Assembly (NCBI GenBank): GCA_964522395.1
Contig: CAZFVN010000007.1
Span: forward strand, 25-64,024
Length of the DNA stretch: 64,000 nt
From: an uncultured Myxococcales bacterium
GTDB lineage: Bacteria; Myxococcota_A; UBA9042; CAIXZC01
Direction of reading: 5' to 3'
Positions 23,126 through 34,075 of the stretch are shown here, in pieces. Made by a program: the position numbers and the translations under genes. Below the pieces are notes generated by a model. The model ran no database searches. It was given only the letters and a program-made list of their open reading frames with translations, and was not told where the DNA came from. Position 1 is the first letter of the stretch. Every line of letters starts with the position of its first letter.

Positions 23126-23893
23126 TCAGATTTCGCCTTCCACTGAACCGGTCACAAACTGGCGCACCACAGAATCATTGCTGTCGAAGAAGTCGTCCGC
23201 TGAACCGTGAAAACGGACCCGGCCATCAAAGAGGAAGAGCACGTCGTCCGCCAGGCGCCGGATAGAGCGCAGGTCATGCGAGATTATCAGTAGGGTTACA
23301 CCGGTCTCCAGGAGAACCTCAACTTGCTGGTCCAACTTGTAGGCGGCATTTGGGTCAAGCCCGGTGGTCGGTTCGTCGAGAATCAGCACGTCTGGCTCCA
23401 GAGCCAGGGCGCGGGCCAGCGAGACCAGCTTCTGATCCCCGGATGGGAGGCGTGTGGGCTTGCTTCGAGTGACACGACCCAGGCCCATCTTCACGAGCTG
23501 GTCGTTAGCCTTGACCTCGGCCGCCTCCGGCGTGAGGCCGAGGTGGTACTTCATCACCACCGCAACGTTTTCGGAAACCGTCATGGAATCGAAAAGGGTG
23601 GGGTGCTGGAAAACATAGACACATCTCTTGCGCAGTTCGAGCAACTCCTCTTCCGACAGGAGATCAACCCGATTCTTGCCGAGGTAAACCTCGCCGCGAT
23701 CGGGCTGTAGCAACCCCACCAGGTGCCTTACCAGGACACTCTTCCCGGTGCCCGACGGGCCAGCGACGAATGAGCATCTGCCCGCTGGAAATGTGGCGTC
23801 GACTCCGCGCAATACGTGGTTATCTCCGAAAGATTTCTCCAGCCCAACGATTCGGGCAGCGGGTATCGTTGACCCGGTTCTCTTGCCACTCAT
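23126..23893 (-). CDS. MlaF-like ABC ATPase (degenerate signature motif)
   Basis: Walker A GPSGTGKS, FQ Q-loop, signature LPSGD, Walker B LILDE, SHD switch. Confidence 0.85.
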   Translation of the reverse strand: MSGKRTGSTIPAARIVGLEKSFGDNHVLRGVDATFPAGRCSFVAGPSGTGKSVLVRHLVGLLQPDRGEVYLGKNRVDLLSEEELLELRKRCVYVFQHPTLFDSMTVSENVAVVMKYHLGLTPEAAEVKANDQLVKMGLGRVTRSKPTRLPSGDQKLVSLARALALEPDVLILDEPTTGLDPNAAYKLDQQVEVLLETGVTLLIISHDLRSIRRLADDVLFLFDGRVRFHGSADDFFDSNDSVVRQFVTGSVEGEI

Positions 23894-24621
23894 AAGAGCA
23901 CCTCGCCGACATAGGAGAGGATGGCATCAAGGAGGATTACTGCGAACGATGAGATGACTACGGCTTTTGTCGTCGCCTGGCCAACTCCCTCGGAGCCCTC
24001 GTCGGCTTCGAAACCACAGGCGCAACTGACCAGCGGCACCGTGAAACCGAAAGTGACGCTCTTGGCGATCCCAATCAGCAAGTCCCCTTCGCGTACGAAT
24101 CTCAGGGAGAGGTAGGTGTCGGGCAGAATGGAGAAACCGAACCACGCCACCAACATGCCCACAAAATAGGCGATTGCGGTGCCGAGTGCGGCCAGGGCGA
24201 CCCCGGCCAGGGTTGCGGCAATCAGCCGCGGCAGCACGAGCAACTCGATAGGGTCGACGGCGTTGAGTTTCATCGCCTCGAGCTGGTCGGTTACCTTCAT
24301 TGAGCCAAGCTCGGCGGCCATTCCTGTGCCCACTCGAGTGGCCAGCAGCAGGCCCGCCATTACCGGCCCCAGTTCACGAGTGAGGCCCTGCAAGACGGCC
24401 CCGCCCAGGGTGGAGTATTCCGGTAGTACCCGCGCCATGGTCGAGGCCAATTGGTAGACACCGATCATGCCGATGAAGGCCATTGTAACGGAGACGAAGA
24501 GAACCGAGCGGTTGCCCGCCTCATAGAACTGACGGAGGATTTCACGGGGCTTGACGCGCAAGCGGACCAACGACCAGAGCGAAAGGGAAAAAAGTTCGAA
24601 CATGCGGTAATAGAGCGTCAC
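23890..24621 (-). CDS. MlaE-family ABC permease
   Basis: RELGPVMAGLLLATRVGTGMAAELGSMKVTDQLEA..LVLPR; GVGQATTKAVV. Confidence 0.88.
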   Translation of the reverse strand: MTLYYRMFELFSLSLWSLVRLRVKPREILRQFYEAGNRSVLFVSVTMAFIGMIGVYQLASTMARVLPEYSTLGGAVLQGLTRELGPVMAGLLLATRVGTGMAAELGSMKVTDQLEAMKLNAVDPIELLVLPRLIAATLAGVALAALGTAIAYFVGMLVAWFGFSILPDTYLSLRFVREGDLLIGIAKSVTFGFTVPLVSCACGFEADEGSEGVGQATTKAVVISSFAVILLDAILSYVGEVLL

Positions 24622-24625
24622 TCGA

Positions 24626-25408
24626 CTATCCGTACACGATGTTGATCCAGGCCCAGGTGATAATATAATCAGAGACGAAGATGCCTAGCGCGGTGGCCAC
24701 GACGCAACCATTGACGGCGTTGCCAACTCCCCGTGCGCCGCCCCGAACCGCCAGCCCGTAAGTAGTACTGCAAATAGAGATGACGATGCCGAAGAAGAAT
24801 GCCTTCACGAGGCCCGCGATGAACGCATCAAGAAGCTCAGCCTCCAGCAGACCCGCGACGAATGTCCGCCAATCAATTCCCAGGAGCCAATGGGCCGTGG
24901 AGGCCCCGCCGATGATGCCGAATAGATCGCCGACTAGCGTCAATGCCACCAGGGAAATGCAGATGGCGACGAAGCGGGGGGCCACCAAGAACTTCACCGG
25001 GTCGATAGCCAGTGCGCGTAGCGCATCGATTTGTTCCGAAACCACCATATTACCGAGCTCTGCTGCGGCGTTGGCGCCGACACGACCAGAGAACATCAGT
25101 CCGATGAGAGTTGGACCCAACTCCGCCAGTACCGCCAGGCCGGAGCCAGAGCCGACAAAGGAAGTGGCTCCAGTGGCCCGCACGTAGCTCATTGTCTGGA
25201 GTACCATGATAACCCCTACGAGAAAGGCGGTAAGGGTGACGATGGGCAGGGAAAGAAAGCCGATGCGATAGAGCTGGCGCCAAACCTCAGCGCCGTCGAG
25301 ACGGGGTGGAATCAGTGCTCTAACGACGCGATAGAAGGTGATATTGAGGGCCCCCAGGATCTCCAGAGTAGCCAGAACTTCCCGGCCGATGGCAGCGAAC
25401 AGTCTCAC
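24626..25408 (-). CDS. MlaE-family ABC permease
   Basis: ELGPTLIGLMFSGRVGANAAAELGNMVVSEQIDALRALAIDP..LVAPR; GVGNAVNGCVV. Confidence 0.88.
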   Translation of the reverse strand: MRLFAAIGREVLATLEILGALNITFYRVVRALIPPRLDGAEVWRQLYRIGFLSLPIVTLTAFLVGVIMVLQTMSYVRATGATSFVGSGSGLAVLAELGPTLIGLMFSGRVGANAAAELGNMVVSEQIDALRALAIDPVKFLVAPRFVAICISLVALTLVGDLFGIIGGASTAHWLLGIDWRTFVAGLLEAELLDAFIAGLVKAFFFGIVISICSTTYGLAVRGGARGVGNAVNGCVVATALGIFVSDYIITWAWINIVYG

Positions 25409-26181
25409 GACCCTTGAACCTCCCGCTGCGGCTCAGTCGCGGCGAAGACAAAATCCCGGATGACCGGGCGCGCACAGTCATATACCTCTTCCTGGAGTCC
25501 GTCATAGAGAACCTGGCCGTCAAATAGACCGACGAGGCGAGTCACGACTGGAAAGAGACGCTGCAGGTCGTGGGTGGCGATTACCACCAATGAATGCGCC
25601 TCCTCTGCATAGGCAGAGAGCATTCGCATGATCTTCGCTGAGTTTACCGGGTCAAGTCCGGCAACCGGGTCATCAAAGAACGCGATGTCGGGGCGAGCAG
25701 CCATTACTCGGGCGATGGCCACTCGGCGCCTCATACCGCCCGAAAGCGCCTCGGGCGACGTCCCCTGGGTGCCGTCCATACCCACTTTGGCGAGAACCTC
25801 CGCTACCCTCTGGTCCACCTCGTGTGCCGGCATCGTGGAGCCCTGGTCGAGGGAGAATCCCACGTTCTCCCGGACGTTCAGAAAGTCGAAGAGAGCGAAG
25901 TTTTGAAACTGCAAACTGATGCGGGCACGGGCTGCCGCCAGGACTCTGCGGTTGAGACGTGAGATACGTTCACCGAATAGTTCAATCGAGCCTCGTTGCG
26001 GAAAGCGTAGAGTGGCCATGGATTTGAGGAGCTGCGTTTTGCCACTTCCACCGGGGCCAAAGAGCCCTACTACTTCGCCGGGGTCAAAGGAGAGCGTGAC
26101 ATCGTCCAGCACGATGCGCCGACCATAGCGAAGAGTTACGCCGTCGAGACGGACCAGATGGGAGTCCGGAATCGTGTCCAA
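25405..26181 (-). CDS. MlaF-like ABC ATPase (Walker B catalytic Glu replaced by Asp)
   Basis: Walker A GPGGSGKT, FQ Q-loop, signature LSGGM, Walker B AFFDD, THD switch. Confidence 0.85.
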   Translation of the reverse strand: MDTIPDSHLVRLDGVTLRYGRRIVLDDVTLSFDPGEVVGLFGPGGSGKTQLLKSMATLRFPQRGSIELFGERISRLNRRVLAAARARISLQFQNFALFDFLNVRENVGFSLDQGSTMPAHEVDQRVAEVLAKVGMDGTQGTSPEALSGGMRRRVAIARVMAARPDIAFFDDPVAGLDPVNSAKIMRMLSAYAEEAHSLVVIATHDLQRLFPVVTRLVGLFDGQVLYDGLQEEVYDCARPVIRDFVFAATEPQREVQGS

Positions 26182-26191
26182 GTTGCCTCCC

Positions 26192-27856
26192 TTAGATCTC
26201 GATGATCTCCTTGAAGCGGCCGAAGACTTTGGTCAGGGCCCCAGAGATTTCACCGACTGTCGCTCCAGCGCGCACCGCGGCAACCATCGGCGGCATCAGA
26301 TTGTCGTCACTCCTGGCCGCGGCGACGACTGTGCTCAGCGCAGCCTCGAGTGCCGTGGCATCACGCGCCTCCTTGAAACGGTGAAGGCGTGTTCGCTGGT
26401 CCTCTTCAACCGCTCGGTCAACCTTCAGGATGTCACTCGGTGGTTCCTGCTTAGCAGCGAATTTGTTGACTCCTACAACGATTGCCTCGTTGTCTTCCAC
26501 CTGCCGCTGGAAGCGGTATGAGGTATCAGAGATCTCCTTCTTCACAAAGCCTGACTCAATAGCCCGCAGCATGCCGCCCATATTGTCGATGCGCTCGATC
26601 ATGGCAGTTGCCTGGGCATCGATGTGGTCCGTGAGTGCCTCCACCGCGTAGCTACCGCCGAGGGGGTCAACGAAGTCTGCCACTGAGCTTTCGTGGCCAA
26701 TAATCTGTTGCGTACGCAGGGCGATGGTAACCGCTTCCTGGGTAGGCAAGGAGAGGGCTTCGTCGTAGCTGTTGGTGTGTAACGACTGGGTGCCGCCCAG
26801 GACCGAGGCGAGGGCTTGGAGGGTAACTCTTACGATATTGTTCATGGGCTGCTGCGCGGTGAGGGTGCACCCCCCCGTCTGAGTGTGGAACCGCAGCAAC
26901 ATGCTACGGGGGCTCTTGGCCCCGAACCGCTCCTTCATGATGGTTGCCCAGAGCCGTCGCGCAGCACGAAACTTCGCCACTTCTTCGAGGAAATTATTGG
27001 AGACGCTGAAGAAGAAGGCCAATCGGCCGGCGAATTGGTCGACGTCGAGGCCTTTCTTAATCGCGGCATCGACGTAGGCAATGCCATCGGCCAGGGTGAA
27101 CGCAACCTCCTGGACAGCATCGGCTCCTGCTTCCCGGATGTGGTAGCCAGAAATGGAAATCGTGTTCCACTTCGGCACCTCTTTGGAGCAGAAATCGAAG
27201 ATGTCGGTGATGATGCGGAGGGAGGGCTCAGGCGGAAAAATGTAAGTGCCGCGGGCGATATACTCTTTAAGCACGTCGTTTTGGATGGTGCCGTTGAGCT
27301 GCTCTCTGCCAATTCCCCTCTCCTCCGCTACCGCCACGTAGAGTGCCAGCAAGACTGCGGCGGTCGAGTTGATGGTCATGGACGTCGAGACCTTGTCCAA
27401 GGGGATCTGGTCGAAGAGAATGCGCATGTCTTCGATGGAGTCGATGGCAACCCCAACCTTGCCCACTTCCCCCTGGGAGAGCGGATGGTCTGAGTCGTAT
27501 CCCATTTGTGTCGGCAGGTCGAAGGCAACGCTCAGCCCTGTCTGACCCTGGTCAAGCAGGTAGCGGTACCGCAGGTTGGATTCTGTCGCGGTTCCAAAGC
27601 CGGCGTATTGACGCATGGTCCACATACGTCCCCGGTGCATGTTGGGCTGAACGCCCCGGGTGTAGGGATGGCGACCAGGAAAACCGAGCTTGCCCTCGTA
27701 GTCAAAAGGCTCCTCAGGGTAGTAGAGAGGGTCAATCGTGCTGCCATCCGAGAGGCGAAAAGAGTCGCGACGAGGTGCGAATCTGGTTTCGGCCGGGTCC
27801 AGCACCTCTTCTTTCCATTGCTGGAAATCCTGTTGCAACTTCTCGTGGTCACTCAT
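26192..27856 (-). CDS. Methylmalonyl-CoA mutase, catalytic (large) subunit without B12-binding domain
   Basis: [17 protein letters not shown] (specificity Tyr), [55 protein letters not shown]; start moved to 27856 (ATGAGTGA overlap with upstream stop). Confidence 0.92.
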
Positions 27857-29240
27857 ATTGTTCGCTCCCTTCCTGTTTATCATCTGGTCCCCCACCCGTA
27901 GAGACGCGGTTCCGGCCCTGATGCTTGGCCGCATAGAGCGCCTGGTCCGCCCGGGTGACGAGGTCCATCGGTTCTAACATGTCCGCGGTCAGTTCAGCTA
28001 CTCCGACGCTGACCGAAAGGCATCCCTCGGGCTGTTCCGCGCCAAATGGAAATTCGTGGTAGGCGACCTTTCGGCGCAGGGCCTCGGCAACCAGCGCAGC
28101 CTCCTCAAGTCCCGTGTCGAGAAAGAGGACTGCGAATTCCTCGCCGCCGTAACGACAGGTGATGTCGGTCTGTCGGACCCGCTGGAGGAATAGCTTGGCC
28201 AGTTCACGGAGGACTTTGTCCCCCTCTGGATGACCCTGAGTATCGTTGTAGTGCTTGAAATGGTCAACGTCGATCATGGCAAAGGCCAGGGGTCTGTCAC
28301 CGCGGCGGGCCAGTTCGAAGTAGAAGGGTAGCGCTTCTTTGAGATGGCGCACATTGGGCAGCCCGGTTAGGGAATCGGTTCGGGCCAATTGCTCTAGCTG
28401 CGTGTTGGCGGCACGGAGCTTGGCCATCGTGGCGACCAGCTCTTCGTTCGCCTTGCCAAGCTCGTCGGTGCGTTCCAGGACCAACTCCTGCAGATCGTGG
28501 GTATGCCGCTCCAGCTCAGCAGTCATGGCGTCGAAACTCTGCCCCAGACGTGCCACCTCGCTGCTACCCTTCATGTGGACTCGTGCGGCGAGGTCGCCGC
28601 CGCGCACCGTGTCGGCGACGGAGGATAGCCGTAGAACCGGTCTCAAGAAGAGACGCTCCGCCATGAAGTAGAGGAGCAGAGCTGTGAGGAGGGCGAAGAT
28701 GAGCATGACTTTCATGGAACGCCAGATGAAGGTCTTCAGAATCTCGGCCTCCCCGGAGAGGTCGAGCTCCGCCGTGAGGGTCCCCCACCGGATACCGGGG
28801 AGCCCCTCCACTGATGTGCTCAAGGGATAGGCCATCCGCATGACACGATGGTCACCTTCCCGCAGATATTGGACTGCCGGGGTGTCCCCTTCGCTGGCGA
28901 GAATCTCAAAGGGGTCAGAGAGCAGTTTGCCGTACATGCTCTTTTCAGTGTGTCCCATGACTCTTCGCTGACGGTCCAGCACAGCTACTGAACGCACTCC
29001 AGCGGTAGCTGCCATTCGGATGTGGAATTCGTCAACCACCCGATCGAGCTCTTCGATGCGATTTTGCGCCAGGGCGGAGACGCACGGGGCAGACAATGCA
29101 GCCATGAGCACACGGGCCCGATTCTCCACCTCATCCGTATAGATCGTACGCTCGTGGTCAGCCACGTAGAAGGCCATGAGCAGCATGGACAGCAGGACCA
29201 TGGCAACGCCCGCGGCAAGGACTCTGACGCGAATGCTCAT
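27849..29240 (-). CDS. Membrane diguanylate cyclase (TM-periplasmic sensor-TM-HAMP-GGDEF)
   Basis: Two TM helices, HAMP ([27 protein letters not shown]), [21 protein letters not shown]-site RQTD, RYGGEEF. Confidence 0.92.
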
Positions 29241-30187
29241 AGGCCTGTCTCTGTCATCAGATCCAACTTCTCTCTGACCGGGTCATAGACCGCATCCCGA
29301 GTTGCAACCCAACCGCTGATCTCCAGGCCGCCGGTAAGCACCTTCCGGCCCTCCTCCGAGGCAGTGTTGAGATGTGCTAGAGCTTCCTTGATTGCCCCAG
29401 CTACTCCGGGAGGCAGGCCCGGACGGGCGACTATTGCATCATGGGGAATACGGCCCGTGACGGCCAGCACTCGCAGATTCCCCACATCCAGCTTCATAGC
29501 CCGGGCTGGCCGCATGAAGGAAGAAAATGTGGCTGTGGCATCGACCTTGCCATCAAGGAGTAGCTTGATCGCGTTGAGGTGATCTCCGGCAAAGACAATT
29601 TCGCCAAAGAAGTCCTCTGCTTTCTCGTTGCGTTCGAGGAGAAAAGCTCTAGGAAAGAGGTAGCCTGAGGCTGATCCTGGAGCAGTGAACGCGAAGCGTT
29701 TGCCGCGTAAGTCCTCTACGCCGCTAACCGGGCTGTCGGCCCGGGATACCAGGTATCCGGAGTAGCTGACAGACCCAAAGGAAACCTGGGTCAAAAGGAG
29801 TTGCATGCAAGGCATGCGCTTGCGTGCCTGTACGTAGGAGAGGGGCGAAAGAGAGGCGAGATCGACTTTCCCCTCAGCCAGGTCGTCAACCAGCCCTGTG
29901 TAGCTGGTGCCCGGGACCTCCTCAAAGAGATAGCCGGTGCGTTCGCTCAGGTAACCTAGAATTGGTTCGAAATTCTGCGAAAGTAGATCGGTGTCAAGGT
30001 ATGGTGTAACTCCAAATCTAATCACCGTGGGGACAACTTTGTCAGCCTCGCAGGAGGCTGGTCTAGAGCTCTCCTCGACCTTGCTCCTCCGGGCCTCGTC
30101 CAGCGGTCGTGGAGCTGTGGATTCTTGACCGCAGGCAGCGACCAGCAACAATGCCATCACCGCAATCACCCTGCCACCCGACGCCAT
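29237..30187 (-). CDS. PhnD/PtxB-family substrate-binding lipoprotein
   Basis: Lipobox LVAAC; IRFGVTPY, DLRGKRFAF..SASGYLFP, GDHLNAI..GKVDA, IPHDAIVAR; start 30187 preferred (ORF can extend to 30304 through the repeats); ATGA overlap with the cyclase. Confidence 0.82.
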   Translation of the reverse strand: MASGGRVIAVMALLLVAACGQESTAPRPLDEARRSKVEESSRPASCEADKVVPTVIRFGVTPYLDTDLLSQNFEPILGYLSERTGYLFEEVPGTSYTGLVDDLAEGKVDLASLSPLSYVQARKRMPCMQLLLTQVSFGSVSYSGYLVSRADSPVSGVEDLRGKRFAFTAPGSASGYLFPRAFLLERNEKAEDFFGEIVFAGDHLNAIKLLLDGKVDATATFSSFMRPARAMKLDVGNLRVLAVTGRIPHDAIVARPGLPPGVAGAIKEALAHLNTASEEGRKVLTGGLEISGWVATRDAVYDPVREKLDLMTETGL

Positions 30188-30270
30188 CCCCGCAATCCAT
30201 TGGTCACCGTACGTCATCCCGGCTATCCATTGGTCACGGTATGCTATCCCCGCGGTCCATTGGTCACATG
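30181..30270. repeat. Three tandem 30-bp repeats over the start of the PhnD-like gene
   Basis: Core TCCATTGGTCAC at 30196, 30226 and 30256 (period exactly 30); in frame encodes DQW(T/I)AG(I/M)xx. Confidence 0.9.
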
Positions 30271-30312
30271 ATCTTATGCTCGGAAAAGCCTGCCGTCCCA
30301 TCAAAAAACTCG

Positions 30313-31650
30313 CTAGGTGATCTTGGTGAAGCGTTCCCAGGTAAGAGGGCTCAACTGGCGCGCCGCTGCCGCGACGGCATCGGGAGCAATGGTAAGCACC
30401 TTGCCCTCGGCCATGAGGAAGCGACCGTTACACATGGTGTGAGTTACCCGTGATGGATGTACGCCAAAGAGAAAGTGCCCGTACCAGTTTTCAACTGAAA
30501 TTGGCGTGAAGGGATAGTGCTCGACAATGATCAGGTCCGCTGCCGCACCCTTCTCCAGGGAACCCAGTCTGGTCCCAAATTGCTCGGAGGCAAAGGCTGC
30601 GTTGTTACGGACGAGGAGATCCACCGCTTCGCCGAAACCCACCGTTGGGTCGCCCTTGACCTGCCGCTGAAGTAACATCGCGATACGAGCCTCTTCGATC
30701 ATGTTGGAGGTCATTCCGTCTGTGCCGAGCCCAACGCGAATCCCCTCTTCCAGCATGCCCAACACGTCTGCCGCTCCCACCGCATTATTCATGTTCGATT
30801 CCGGGTTGTGGGCGACGAACGTTCCGCTATCCTTGAGCAGCTTTCGCTCGGTTTCGTCCACGTGGATGCAATGGGCGAGGATCGTCTTGGGACCAAGCGC
30901 GCCGGCATCGTGGTAGCGCTGTATAACCCGCTTGCCGTACTTGTTCAGACTGTCTTCCTGGTCCGAGAGATCCTCAGCCGCATGGACGTGGATGCCGATG
31001 TCGGCTTCCTTTGCCATGGCGACCGACCGCTCCAGGGTGGGCTGGGAAACGGTCATGGAAGCGTGTAGTCCAAACATGCCACGCAGCATATTTCCAGTGC
31101 CATTAACCTGGGCTGCGAACTCAGCATTCTCTGCCAGTCCCGCCTCCAGAGATTCGGTGCCGTCCCGGTCACTTACTTCGTAGCAGAAGCTACTCCGGAC
31201 TCCAGCCGCTGAGGCCGCTTGAGCCAGCGTATTCAGGCTCCCCTTCACCGCCCAGGGCGAGGCGTGATGGTCGATGACGGTGGTGGTGCCAGAAATGATC
31301 GCCCGGTAATAGGGGACCATCGCGCTGTAGTAGACATCTTCCAGCGAAAGGGCGCGGTCGAGCTTCCACCAGAGCTTCTGCAAGATCTCCGGGAAGTTGA
31401 AGGCCGGCTCGCCGGCCAGTCCGCAGGCAAAGGTCGAATAGAGATGCATGTGCCCATTGACCATGCCGGGCATTACTACGCGACCGGCCGCATTAACCAC
31501 CGATGCCGCAGGGTACTTGTCCATCAGATCGGCAGTGGTGCCGACCTCGGCGATTGTGGTTCCATCGACGCAAACCGCGCCATCTTCGATGACGAAATCG
31601 GGAGTTCCGGGACTGACTACGGTGCCGTGAATTATCAACGTCTGACTCAT
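30313..31650 (-). CDS. ssnA: SsnA-like metal-dependent amidohydrolase
   Basis: PGMVNGHMHLYSTFACGL, GTTTVIDHHASP, CYEVSDRDG, FGLHASMT, HVHAAED, AHNPESNMNNAVG, GLGTDG. Confidence 0.8.
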   Translation of the reverse strand: MSQTLIIHGTVVSPGTPDFVIEDGAVCVDGTTIAEVGTTADLMDKYPAASVVNAAGRVVMPGMVNGHMHLYSTFACGLAGEPAFNFPEILQKLWWKLDRALSLEDVYYSAMVPYYRAIISGTTTVIDHHASPWAVKGSLNTLAQAASAAGVRSSFCYEVSDRDGTESLEAGLAENAEFAAQVNGTGNMLRGMFGLHASMTVSQPTLERSVAMAKEADIGIHVHAAEDLSDQEDSLNKYGKRVIQRYHDAGALGPKTILAHCIHVDETERKLLKDSGTFVAHNPESNMNNAVGAADVLGMLEEGIRVGLGTDGMTSNMIEEARIAMLLQRQVKGDPTVGFGEAVDLLVRNNAAFASEQFGTRLGSLEKGAAADLIIVEHYPFTPISVENWYGHFLFGVHPSRVTHTMCNGRFLMAEGKVLTIAPDAVAAAARQLSPLTWERFTKIT

Positions 31651-31698: not shown

Positions 31699-34011
31699 CT
31701 AGGAACCCTGGCCGAACTTCCCTTCTCCGCTGGACTTCGGGCTGTCAACACCTGTAGGTTCCTTGATCTCTTCTTCTATCTCTTCTTTCTTGTCTTCCAT
31801 TTGGGCTTCTTCCATGGCGTCGCGATAGGCCTTCTCTTCGGCCTTCATCAAGGTCTGACTACGCACCTCTTGCATCTTACGGTCCAGCTCCCACGCCTTG
31901 TCTTCCAGTCCCCAGACATCCTTGCGGCGACCTGAATGCAGTTCATCAATGGCAATCCCGTCTTGAATGAGGTGCTCTACTAGCGCCGCGACGCTTTCAT
32001 CTCCGATATAATGCCCGCCGTAGCCGTAGAAGTTCTCCCCCTCTTTCACACCGACCATGGCGGTAACCCCAATGCGGGACATCATCTGGCCGATTCGCTT
32101 GTTGGTCTCGGTCTCAATCTCCTGACGTCTCTTCTTTGCTTTGGCCCGAAGCTCCGTCTGCTCCGCCTTCAGCTTCTTGTACTCGTCACTGAAGGGTACT
32201 TTCGACGGCTCAGCCGGCTGAGTTACGGCCCAGTCAGCAGAGGAGCGGCCAATTCCCACGAAGAAAGCTGCAAAGGAACCGAAGTCCATGGCCGCAATGC
32301 CCGTGCTCTCTTCCAAACTCAAAAGAGCCACCAGCTCCTCGTTGTCCAGTTCGTCAACGAAGCTGCGACGGGTCTTACTCTTGAATGCCGCGACAAACTC
32401 GGGATCGGTAGTGGCCACGAGGTAGCCGTCCGTGATTGTCAAAGAGAGCGTGCGCCACTCCGGTACCGGCACGTCCCACGAGTTGACACCGGTGGATTTA
32501 ACGAAGGGTTTCACCATCTCAAGGGCGAAGATCTTTTCTAACGAGGTGGCTGTCTTGTCCACATCCGCCAAGCCCAGCAAGAGGGTGCCACCGATAAGCT
32601 TGAAGCCCTCTAGTTCACCCGTCAGGATTTCCTGGAGATCGCCAAAGACCGTGAAGCCGATATCGCCGGAGAAGATCGCCAGAATATCTTCCTGCAGGTC
32701 GAGCCCGGTGAACTTCTTGAACTCTTTGCCAGCCTCTGCAATGGACATTCCTTCAGGAGCCAGCATCAGGTCGATAAGTTCCAGGTAGCCTTTCAAATCG
32801 ATGTTCAAGTGAGCGAGGTAGAAGGGGCGATATGGCGAATACTCGATAATGGGAGATGGGCCCTTCACCGGGCGTGCGAGCGTACCCCAGCGCGATTCGG
32901 CTCCAATCTGGGTGTAGCTCTTGAAACGGAGGCTCTTTTCAGCCAACTCGACGCCCATGGCAACGGTGCCCGTACCTGTGAGGAGCGACTCAAACATCTC
33001 CTTCTCAGCGGCCTGTCGTTTGCGCTCCCTCTCGGCCCATTCGCGGTCTGACTTGACCCGCGACTCCAAATACTCGACTTCACTTTCGTCGCCAGCTTCG
33101 CGGGCCCGCTTGAGCTGCCCCTCGGAGTCTGCCAGGGACTCTTCGGCCCAGCGATTACCCATTCCCAGCACAGACTTCAGCATTGCCGGAGTGTCAATAT
33201 AGACTGCCGCATCCTTGCCAAAAGCCAACTCCTTGAGCGTATTCTTGAAGAGTTCGTTTTCGGCGAGAGAGGGGCCTTCCGTGTCCCGGGCGGCAAACTT
33301 GAGTGCCAACGCGAGCGCCTCTTCATCGGCCATGTCCGCAAAATGCACAAATGCCAGCTTGTCTTTGATAATGAAGCAGACCTCTTCGTCGTTCCTGGGG
33401 CAAATGACCGTGGCCCCTCCAGCTACGTGGGGCTCCATCTTCTCGCGCACCCTCCCGGCGATCGAGTAAATGGTAGTCTTGAATCTGTCAGCATCGGTCA
33501 GGGACCAGAAGGCGACGCCCACGGGACGCTGGAACTGGAGCATGGCAAATCCGGCAGTGCCGGTCGGGTCGATCCCGACGTTGGTTAGGTTCTTGGGTAC
33601 GAGCACGTTTTCACCCACAGCCTGGGTGACCTCTGCAACGGCCATCTCGTAATACTGAGCGAAGGTCTTGGTCAGTCGCTCCCGACCAAGCCTGTCCAGC
33701 AAATCCTGAGGGTTTGCTGCGACCACGAGCATGGGGGTTTCAACCGGCAGATACCTGAGCGCTTCCAGGTCATCCAGCGCGGTTGGCCCCTCGGGGAAAG
33801 CTCGGGTGAGGGGGTCTTCTTCCTGGGCCACCGGAGCCGCCGTCGGGACCTCTTCGGCAGGTGAGGTCTTCTCCCCCGGTGATGGAGCCGCCTCCTTCTG
33901 CTTCGCCAACTCTTCCTTGGATTTAGGTTCAGGGCGTTGGCACTGTACCAGGCCAGACAGGGTGAGAGACAAGACAAGAAGCTGCACGAGGTAGGTCGCT
34001 TGCCGGGTCAT
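31699..34011 (-). CDS. Large exported/lipoprotein of unknown function (DUF3352-like, with coiled-coil inserts)
   Basis: Start moved to ATG 34011 (GGAGG RBS; listed start lies inside the promoter); signal ending ..GLVQC; GIDPTG, FSGDIGFTV, LVATTD motifs; charged coiled coils. Confidence 0.6.
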   Translation of the reverse strand: MTRQATYLVQLLVLSLTLSGLVQCQRPEPKSKEELAKQKEAAPSPGEKTSPAEEVPTAAPVAQEEDPLTRAFPEGPTALDDLEALRYLPVETPMLVVAANPQDLLDRLGRERLTKTFAQYYEMAVAEVTQAVGENVLVPKNLTNVGIDPTGTAGFAMLQFQRPVGVAFWSLTDADRFKTTIYSIAGRVREKMEPHVAGGATVICPRNDEEVCFIIKDKLAFVHFADMADEEALALALKFAARDTEGPSLAENELFKNTLKELAFGKDAAVYIDTPAMLKSVLGMGNRWAEESLADSEGQLKRAREAGDESEVEYLESRVKSDREWAERERKRQAAEKEMFESLLTGTGTVAMGVELAEKSLRFKSYTQIGAESRWGTLARPVKGPSPIIEYSPYRPFYLAHLNIDLKGYLELIDLMLAPEGMSIAEAGKEFKKFTGLDLQEDILAIFSGDIGFTVFGDLQEILTGELEGFKLIGGTLLLGLADVDKTATSLEKIFALEMVKPFVKSTGVNSWDVPVPEWRTLSLTITDGYLVATTDPEFVAAFKSKTRRSFVDELDNEELVALLSLEESTGIAAMDFGSFAAFFVGIGRSSADWAVTQPAEPSKVPFSDEYKKLKAEQTELRAKAKKRRQEIETETNKRIGQMMSRIGVTAMVGVKEGENFYGYGGHYIGDESVAALVEHLIQDGIAIDELHSGRRKDVWGLEDKAWELDRKMQEVRSQTLMKAEEKAYRDAMEEAQMEDKKEEIEEEIKEPTGVDSPKSSGEGKFGQGS

Positions 34012-34045
34012 GGTTGCCTCCATGGTCATTTGAACGGCTCGCCAC

Positions 34046-34075
34046 AGTCTAGTGGCTCGCGTGCGCACGTGTCAA
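34046..34075 (-). promoter_or_regulatory. sigma70-type promoter for the lipoprotein-ssnA-phnD-dgc-mcm-mla gene run
   Basis: Minus strand TTGACA(34075-70)-18 bp-TAGACT(34051-46). Confidence 0.55.

Follow-up and report, generated by a model that had tools for sequence, protein, structure and literature searches.

Control of a membrane diguanylate cyclase by a periplasmic binding protein that serves no transporter is a design already known from the XAC2383-XAC2382 pair of Xanthomonas citri (Teixeira et al. 2018, J Biol Chem 293:10767), and the AioX-AioS pair follows a related logic. Here we describe a gene pair of the same kind in a 64,000-nucleotide stretch of DNA from an uncultured Myxococcales bacterium (GenBank assembly GCA_964522395.1, contig CAZFVN010000007.1, positions 25 to 64,024; the whole stretch is referred to as the window). 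The pair consists of a gene for a binding lipoprotein of the PF12974 (PhnD/AioX) fold (29237-30187, minus strand; 316 amino acids counted from ATG 30187) and a gene for a membrane diguanylate cyclase, an enzyme that makes cyclic diguanosine monophosphate (c-di-GMP), in which a single-Cache (sCache)-like domain between two transmembrane helices is followed by HAMP and GGDEF domains (27849-29240, minus strand; 463 amino acids).

Teixeira et al. reportedly described XAC2383 and XAC2382 in 2018 as receptor and cyclase. XAC2383 is said to interact with the Cache domain of XAC2382, to inhibit the cyclase and to prefer phosphate-containing anions, mutants of the two genes reportedly show opposite motility phenotypes, and homologous pairs with varied outputs are said to occur in several phyla. 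XAC2383 is a PF12974 member with solved structures (PDB 5UB3; entries 5UB3-5UB7), and one crystal form contains ATP. It is a PF12974-fold periplasmic protein without a transporter, co-transcribed with a Cache-bearing membrane diguanylate cyclase. The window pair likewise combines the PF12974 fold with an adjoining, co-oriented Cache-GGDEF cyclase and no cognate ATP-binding cassette (ABC) genes. However, when the receptors alone are compared, XAC2383 is a remote relative of the window protein (profile E=3e-10, 18-19% identity), more distant than PhnD or AioX. In a Foldseek search with the AlphaFold 2 (AF2) model of the window protein, 5UB3/5UB7 appear at ranks 37-40 (E~2e-20, target-normalised TM-score 0.72-0.75). 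Furthermore, the window protein is a lipoprotein with a linker of about 35 residues, unlike XAC2383.

AioX and ArrX, which are signalling-only PF12974 proteins, are the nearest solved relatives of the window protein. AioX works with AioS, a membrane sensor that has an sCache-like domain and HAMP (PMC8050422, PMC5908839). Two paralogous pairs of the same genome fall in the AioX/ArrX clade, and their sensor domains are homologous to that of the window cyclase. The output of the arsenic-oxyanion sensing systems AioX-AioS-AioR, ArxXSR and ArrXSR is a histidine kinase with a response regulator, whereas the window output is a GGDEF cyclase. PhnD, PtxB and HtxB, which bind substrate for ABC importers of phosphonate, phosphite and hypophosphite, share the fold (target-normalised TM-score 0.76-0.92) and a Tyr-Tyr-Ser-x-Ser-His core with the window protein, but their genes lie beside an ATPase and PhnE-type permeases, and transporter-type proteins form a separate clade. 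NspS-MbaA of Vibrio cholerae and ScrB-ScrC of V. parahaemolyticus also use a transporter-independent binding protein to control a membrane c-di-GMP enzyme through its periplasmic domain. Their binding proteins, however, belong to SBP_bac_8 and SBP_bac_3, their sensors are dCache-like, their enzymes are GGDEF-EAL proteins and their ligands are polyamines and an autoinducer.

A first-pass annotation of this DNA had named NspS-MbaA as the precedent. The principle is the same, but XAC2383-XAC2382 and AioX/ArrX are closer, so the two-protein idea is less novel than that annotation assumed. A 2021 review of binding proteins in signalling gives AioX-AioS as its PF12974 example and only NspS-MbaA and ScrB-ScrC for c-di-GMP enzymes (PMC8050422); within the binding-protein clan, a 2022 census of c-di-GMP sensory inputs lists only SBP_bac_3 as studied. 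XAC2383-XAC2382 is mentioned in neither. Judged by its receptor, the window pair appears to be no close relative of the Xanthomonas pair, and it does not belong to the arsenic-sensing XSR subfamily. What is new is a distinct class-wide GGDEF-coupled clade, its pocket signature, translational coupling to the methylmalonyl-CoA mutase gene in one family and four differently wired modules in one genome.

Anatomy of the gene pair and conservation of the pairing

The binding protein matches PF12974 (Phosphonate-bd) over its whole length (Pfam, E=2e-59) and, at 157 bits, exceeds the family cut-off of TIGR01098. It does not reach the PhnD equivalog level (TIGR03431, 134 bits against a cut-off of 261). 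The translation counted from ATG 30187 begins with MASGGRVIAVMALLLVAAC, a lipoprotein signal peptide (30131-30187, minus strand) with the lipobox VAAC at its end (Cys19). An A-C lipobox is common to most orthologues, and the linker mentioned above separates the signal from the fold. The AF2 model of the protein has a predicted local distance difference test score (pLDDT) of 92. The PhnD-like lipoprotein of the first-pass annotation is therefore borne out, as is the overlap of its stop codon with the cyclase start (ATGA, 29237-29240, minus strand). The same 4-nt overlap recurs in orthologues down to 43% identity, and the two genes are translationally coupled.

In the cyclase, two hydrophobic helices flank a periplasmic domain of about 145 residues. 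HAMP (residues 196-244; 28509-28655; PF00672, E=2.2e-10) and the GGDEF catalytic domain (residues 287-445; 27906-28382; PF00990, E=3.5e-44) follow, all on the minus strand. Motif reading places GGEEF at residues 365-369 (28134-28148, minus strand) and an RxxD inhibitory site (I-site), RQTD, at residues 356-359 (28164-28175, minus strand). RQTD stands five residues upstream of GGEEF, the spacing of PleD. The domain also carries a DVDHFK...ND motif with metal and substrate residues. The periplasmic domain, HAMP, GGEEF and RxxD had been listed in the first-pass annotation, and all are present. Judged from its sequence, the enzyme thus has the predicted active site, metal and substrate residues and RxxD site by which active diguanylate cyclases are recognised.

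The periplasmic domain (approximately residues 27-170; 28731-29162, minus strand) is too divergent for Pfam sCache_3_2, so its assignment as a single-Cache (PDC) sensor comes from profile-profile comparison and the AF2 fold. Modelled residues 21-175 (pLDDT 85) adopt one PDC/Cache fold, for which Foldseek ranks the WalK extracellular domain (query-normalised TM-score 0.81), DcuS and CitA highest. A profile of the window sensor clade matches a profile of the kinase-linked sensors of AioX-type pairs with 98.4% probability (E=7e-15). Scanning 1.84 billion representative proteins with the window sensor domain returned 67 relatives at E<=0.001. Among these and the query (68 sequences), HAMP was found in 57, GGDEF in 54 and sCache_3_2 in 42, and an R-W-G-T motif (R151-W152-G153-T154) is nearly invariant.

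No PhnC/PhnE-type importer is present in the window, as the first-pass annotation had stated. The only ABC genes in this region are of Mla type (two MlaE permeases and two ATPases, 23126-26181). The search was extended to the whole genome assembly (5.35 Mb, 219 contigs, 88% complete) with TIGR01097, with tblastn using two PhnE proteins from a true phn locus and with a local hidden Markov model (HMM), and no PhnE-type permease was found in it. The genome has four PF12974 genes. All four are followed within 0-16 nt by a homologous sensor gene with a periplasmic domain between two transmembrane helices and a HAMP domain; in three of these sensors the periplasmic domain is recognised by Pfam itself as sCache_3_2. 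The outputs differ: GGDEF in the window, GAF-GGDEF on contig 36, GAF-HD, apparently truncated, on contig 179, and a HisKA_3 kinase, followed by a LuxR-type response regulator, on contig 31.

The pairing extends well beyond this genome. Metagenomic orthologues at 74, 50, 49 and 43% identity have the binding protein, the 4-nt overlap, a HAMP-GGDEF protein and then a mutase gene. At 38% identity the cyclase gene comes first and still overlaps the binding-protein gene. A 28%-identity relative from Wenzhouxiangella belongs to a classical phnD-C-E-E importer (binding protein, ATPase, permease, permease). The first-pass annotation had proposed a neighbourhood survey, with usual clustering of orthologues with phnCE as the outcome that would speak against a signalling role. 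Our survey covered the 40 nearest genomes, which share the genus, family or class of the window genome. From it, 60 loci were fetched and mapped with Pfam and with HMMs of our own that represented the binding protein, the sensor domain, GGDEF, kinases, ABC ATPases and PhnE. PF12974 was present in 37 of 41 genomes searched (the 40 relatives and the window's own). A homologous sensor gene adjoins the PF12974 gene on the same strand at 38 of 45 strong loci, while none of the 45 has a PhnE neighbour. The outcome that the annotation had named as refuting thus did not occur. The sensor output is GGDEF at 29 of the 38, HisKA_3 at three, HisKA at two and GAF-HD-GYP at one; at the other three the sensor is cut by a contig end. 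The remaining strong loci comprise one with an ABC ATPase as neighbour, one in which the PF12974 gene lies behind a hybrid kinase, one at a contig end and four with an unclear neighbour. Because the overlap recurs in orthologues and the pairing at most related loci, both are more than chance.

In a maximum-likelihood tree of 59 binding proteins, transporter-linked proteins split from all others with a Shimodaira-Hasegawa-like approximate likelihood-ratio test (SH-aLRT) support of 100%. A clade of AioX and ArrX (99%) holds kinase- and HD-GYP-linked proteins, including the paralogues from contigs 179 and 31. The window protein lies outside it, in a different clade of 36 rows (93%) whose members come from ten families of the class and are almost all coupled to HAMP-GGDEF. 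The sensor-domain tree recovers the same three major groups and most sub-groups. Furthermore, pairwise distances of binding protein and sensor are correlated (Mantel r=0.86, a value reached in none of 2000 permutations). Together, the congruent trees and this correlation show that the pairs have been duplicated and inherited as units. Such congruence supports a functional unit, although it is not proof of contact.

Taken together, these data point to a binding protein that acts as a periplasmic receptor gating the diguanylate cyclase and serves no transporter, as the first-pass annotation had proposed; we put the probability of this reading at about 0.8. The genome without PhnE, the pairing of all four PF12974 genes, the 38 of 45 related loci and the congruent trees all argue for it, and the two proteins appear to form a genuine c-di-GMP sensor. 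Bacteria have many c-di-GMP enzymes, but only a few of these have a known ligand. To a receptor design for which we found one experimentally studied example, the pair would add a clearly bounded clade of probable binding-protein-gated cyclases that spans the class. Until a ligand has been identified, its practical value is modest.

The binding pocket and the ligand class

The pocket of AioX is formed by Tyr88, Cys106, Tyr131, Ser161, Ser163, His192 and Asp210 (PMC5908839). In an alignment with AioX and ArrX, the corresponding window residues are Y96, S114, Y142, S172, S174, H203 and F221 (span 29525-29902, minus strand). Five of the seven are kept, and Cys106 and Asp210 are replaced by Ser114 and Phe221. 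Across relatives, the pattern is Y-C-Y-S-S/T-H-D/H in the AioX/ArrX clade, Y-P-Y-S-S-H-Y in transporter proteins and Y-[S/P/A/T]-Y-S-S-H-[F/Y/A/S/G] in the GGDEF-coupled clade. The core residues Y96, Y142, S172, S174 and H203 are invariant or nearly so in the window clade, and the same Tyr-Tyr-Ser-x-Ser-His core is present in phosphite and phosphonate binders. The core that would hold an oxyanion is therefore intact in the window protein.

In the PDB, the best sequence matches of the window protein are ArrX (E=2.7e-24) and AioX (1e-20), then PtxB and HtxB, then PhnD (1.7e-12). The clade profile matches AioX (8e-33), ArrX (9e-31) and PhnD (7e-22) before XAC2383. The transporter-linked relative shows the reverse preference, with PtxB at 4e-21 and ArrX at 2e-6. 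By structure, ArrX, PtxB and AioX are closest to the AF2 model (target-normalised TM-scores 0.85-0.92), and the model fits liganded, closed forms (root-mean-square deviation about 2 Å) far better than apo PtxB (about 6.4 Å).

The first-pass annotation had suggested phosphate, phosphonate or another oxyanion as ligand. The retained core is consistent with an oxyanion; it does not narrow the choice to phosphate or phosphonate, because the two specificity positions differ from every characterised relative. We consider a phosphorus- or arsenic-type oxyanion a tentative assignment, with somewhat less than even chances of being correct.

Three more specific candidates were rejected. An arsenite sensor was rejected because of the missing pocket Cys, the different clade and the lack of nearby arsenic genes: no arsenite oxidase or arsenate reductase gene was found near the window pair, whose neighbours are an SsnA-type aminohydrolase, the mutase and the Mla-type ABC system. 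A sterol binder like BstB (7T1M) was rejected because of a far weaker structural match (Foldseek rank 43, E=5e-16) and the intact polar oxyanion core. A selenate link, suggested by SsnA and by TIGR04553 (a putative selenate-binder model), reaches only 108 bits against a cut-off of 250.

Proposed mechanism and competing explanations

From the anatomy of the pair and the published behaviour of AioX-AioS and XAC2383-XAC2382, we infer a mechanism that includes physical contact, a sign of regulation, a ligand and a downstream target of c-di-GMP. The lipoprotein would work as a Venus flytrap, closing around a small ligand in the periplasm. This ligand would most likely be a tetrahedral oxyanion such as phosphate, phosphite, a phosphonate or arsenate, or one of similar type. 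In its ligand-loaded or ligand-free form, it would dock on or leave the single-Cache domain of a dimeric cyclase. The signal would then pass through the second transmembrane helix and HAMP and alter the geometry of the two GGDEF domains, so that c-di-GMP synthesis goes up or down. The RxxD site would add product inhibition.

Several points weigh against this reading. Two pocket positions (S114 and F221) are unlike those of any characterised relative. The ligand class is uncertain because PF12974 members can bind non-oxyanions, such as the sterols of BstB, and because ArrX crystals contain acetate, malonate or sulfate. The window sensor domain falls below the Pfam sCache_3_2 threshold (E=0.17). 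Since the genome is 88% complete, a permease could have been missed. Co-inheritance of neighbouring genes alone would also yield congruent trees and a Mantel correlation. In addition, Cache domains are able to bind ligands on their own, in which case the binding protein may be only one of two inputs.

It is conceivable, if unlikely, that the pair is a receptor for some other small anion, for instance a carboxylate (di- or mono-) connected with the mutase, or an oxyanion of sulfur or selenium. The equivalents of AioX Cys106 and Asp210 are variable across the clade, and malonate, acetate and sulfate have been found in ArrX crystals. Within the family the order of binding protein, cyclase and mutase is kept with overlapping stops and starts, and an SsnA-type gene usually lies directly upstream. 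However, the pocket core is identical to that of phosphite and phosphonate binders, and the putative selenate-binder model scores far below its cut-off. Only one family of the class shows linkage to the mutase, which most GGDEF-coupled relatives lack; the linkage may therefore reflect nothing more than synteny. A bolder form of the idea, which we regard as improbable, is that the GGDEF-coupled clade represents an ancient envelope sensor, passed on vertically within an uncultured deltaproteobacterial or Myxococcota-like class, with a pocket rebuilt as Tyr-Ser-Tyr-Ser-Ser-His-Phe for a ligand class new to PF12974 receptors. Clustered at 50% identity, the window sensor-domain family comes to about 67 clusters, and HAMP-GGDEF follows it almost without exception. 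The new ligand could be a carboxylate resembling methylmalonate or succinate, and its link would be with the methylmalonyl-CoA mutase, whose gene is translationally coupled. If true, an organic acid outside the cell would be connected with c-di-GMP and with propionate metabolism.

YfiR acts on YfiN as a ligand-independent periplasmic partner, and the binding protein might in the same manner be a fixed inhibitor or stabiliser while the Cache domain does the sensing. DcuS/CitA-type Cache domains do bind ligands directly, the modelled window domain has that fold, and its R-W-G-T motif is nearly invariant. We nevertheless hold this to be very improbable, because a pocket core that is invariant or nearly so across 33-59 sequences is hard to explain without ligand binding; moreover, the model resembles the closed, liganded forms of its relatives. 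Still less credible, and to our minds extremely unlikely, is that the binding protein feeds a transporter encoded elsewhere, such as an ABC importer at another locus or the Mla-type system nearby, with adjacency to the cyclase being operon hitch-hiking. That Mla-type system is found on the same strand, 1.7 kb downstream, but its permeases are of the MlaE type, whose partners are MlaD/MCE proteins and not binding proteins of the flytrap kind. The incompleteness of the genome leaves room for an importer elsewhere, although three methods found no PhnE-like permease in the assembly. Some binding proteins both transport and signal (PMC8050422). Against this, the conserved partner here is the sensor and not any ABC gene, and the transporter-linked PF12974 proteins are a separate clade.

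Gene starts, neighbouring genes and paralogous modules

Counted from the first possible TTG, the open reading frame (ORF) of the binding protein spans 29237-30304 on the minus strand, and ATG 30187 is the likely start. The start-codon region is covered by three copies of a 30-bp tandem repeat (30181-30270, minus strand; Tandem Repeats Finder). Its unit (GTGACCAATGGA..GC.GGGAT...) is found nowhere else in the genome and duplicates in frame both a Shine-Dalgarno-like sequence and the start codon. Because these are triplicated, the start is ambiguous between ATG 30187 and ATG 30217. In an orthologue with 76% identity (P0004), the corresponding N-terminal position carries an independent repeat (QAFRTAIAWVEK x2.5). 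Since both repeats fall at the same place, the 5' end of the gene seems prone to tandem duplication. Two further cysteines of the binding protein, Cys46 (30050-30052), in the linker just ahead of the fold, and Cys127 (29807-29809), within the motif MPC, are invariant among the five closest orthologues. A disulfide between them could pin the linker to domain 1.

Downstream of the cyclase lies the gene for the large subunit of methylmalonyl-CoA mutase (26192-27856, minus strand; Pfam MM_CoA_mutase, E=3.6e-227). Its likely start, ATG 27856, is preceded by the Shine-Dalgarno-like GGAAGGGAG and gives an 8-nt overlap with the cyclase stop. The order binding protein, cyclase, mutase is kept in six related genomes of the same family. 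The gene encodes only the large, substrate-binding part (554 amino acids); the likely B12-binding small subunit is a 155-amino-acid ORF on another contig (C6:57658-57978; PF02310, E=7.5e-25).

Upstream of the binding-protein gene and on the same strand is the SsnA-type aminohydrolase gene (30313-31650). A promoter and terminator scan was uninformative, finding no clear promoter in the gap between SsnA and the binding-protein gene and no terminator within the gene string. Further upstream, a 789-amino-acid protein (31699-34068, minus strand) has no Pfam or NCBIfam match. Genes for proteins of 748-796 amino acids without a Pfam match occupy the equivalent spot in three orthologous metagenomic contexts.

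The paralogous modules of the genome show some features of their own. The sensor of the third pair (C179:3362-4792, in the L002 region) stops inside its HD domain at 476 amino acids, while its orthologue in a related genome (L020) has 602 amino acids and a complete HD-GYP (HD_5). The short sensor could reflect a frameshift, an assembly error or a pseudogene. The binding proteins of the contig 179 and contig 31 pairs (C179:2328-3365 and C31:37260-38270), both inside the AioX/ArrX clade, keep the arsenite-binding cysteine, and in the former all residues of the AioX pocket are retained. Both proteins are candidate sensors of arsenic oxyanions, apparently wired to an HD-GYP phosphodiesterase and a HisKA_3 kinase. 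It should also be noted that no arsenic redox genes were seen in the examined flanks of these two pairs. With four modules and four outputs, two with an arsenic-sensor-type pocket and two without, the genome provides a natural comparison set. It should help to show how duplicated modules come to differ in the partners and ligands that they recognise.

Finally, some weaker PF12974 genes of the survey that lack a Cache-HAMP neighbour adjoin large Ser/Thr kinase genes (L057/G016, L058/G036 and L059/G017). The Pkinase neighbour is about 800 amino acids long in L058 and L059; in L057 it is a 585-amino-acid ORF with a weak, partial match at the cut-off. Divergent PhnD-fold proteins of the class thus also seem to be tied to signalling rather than transport.

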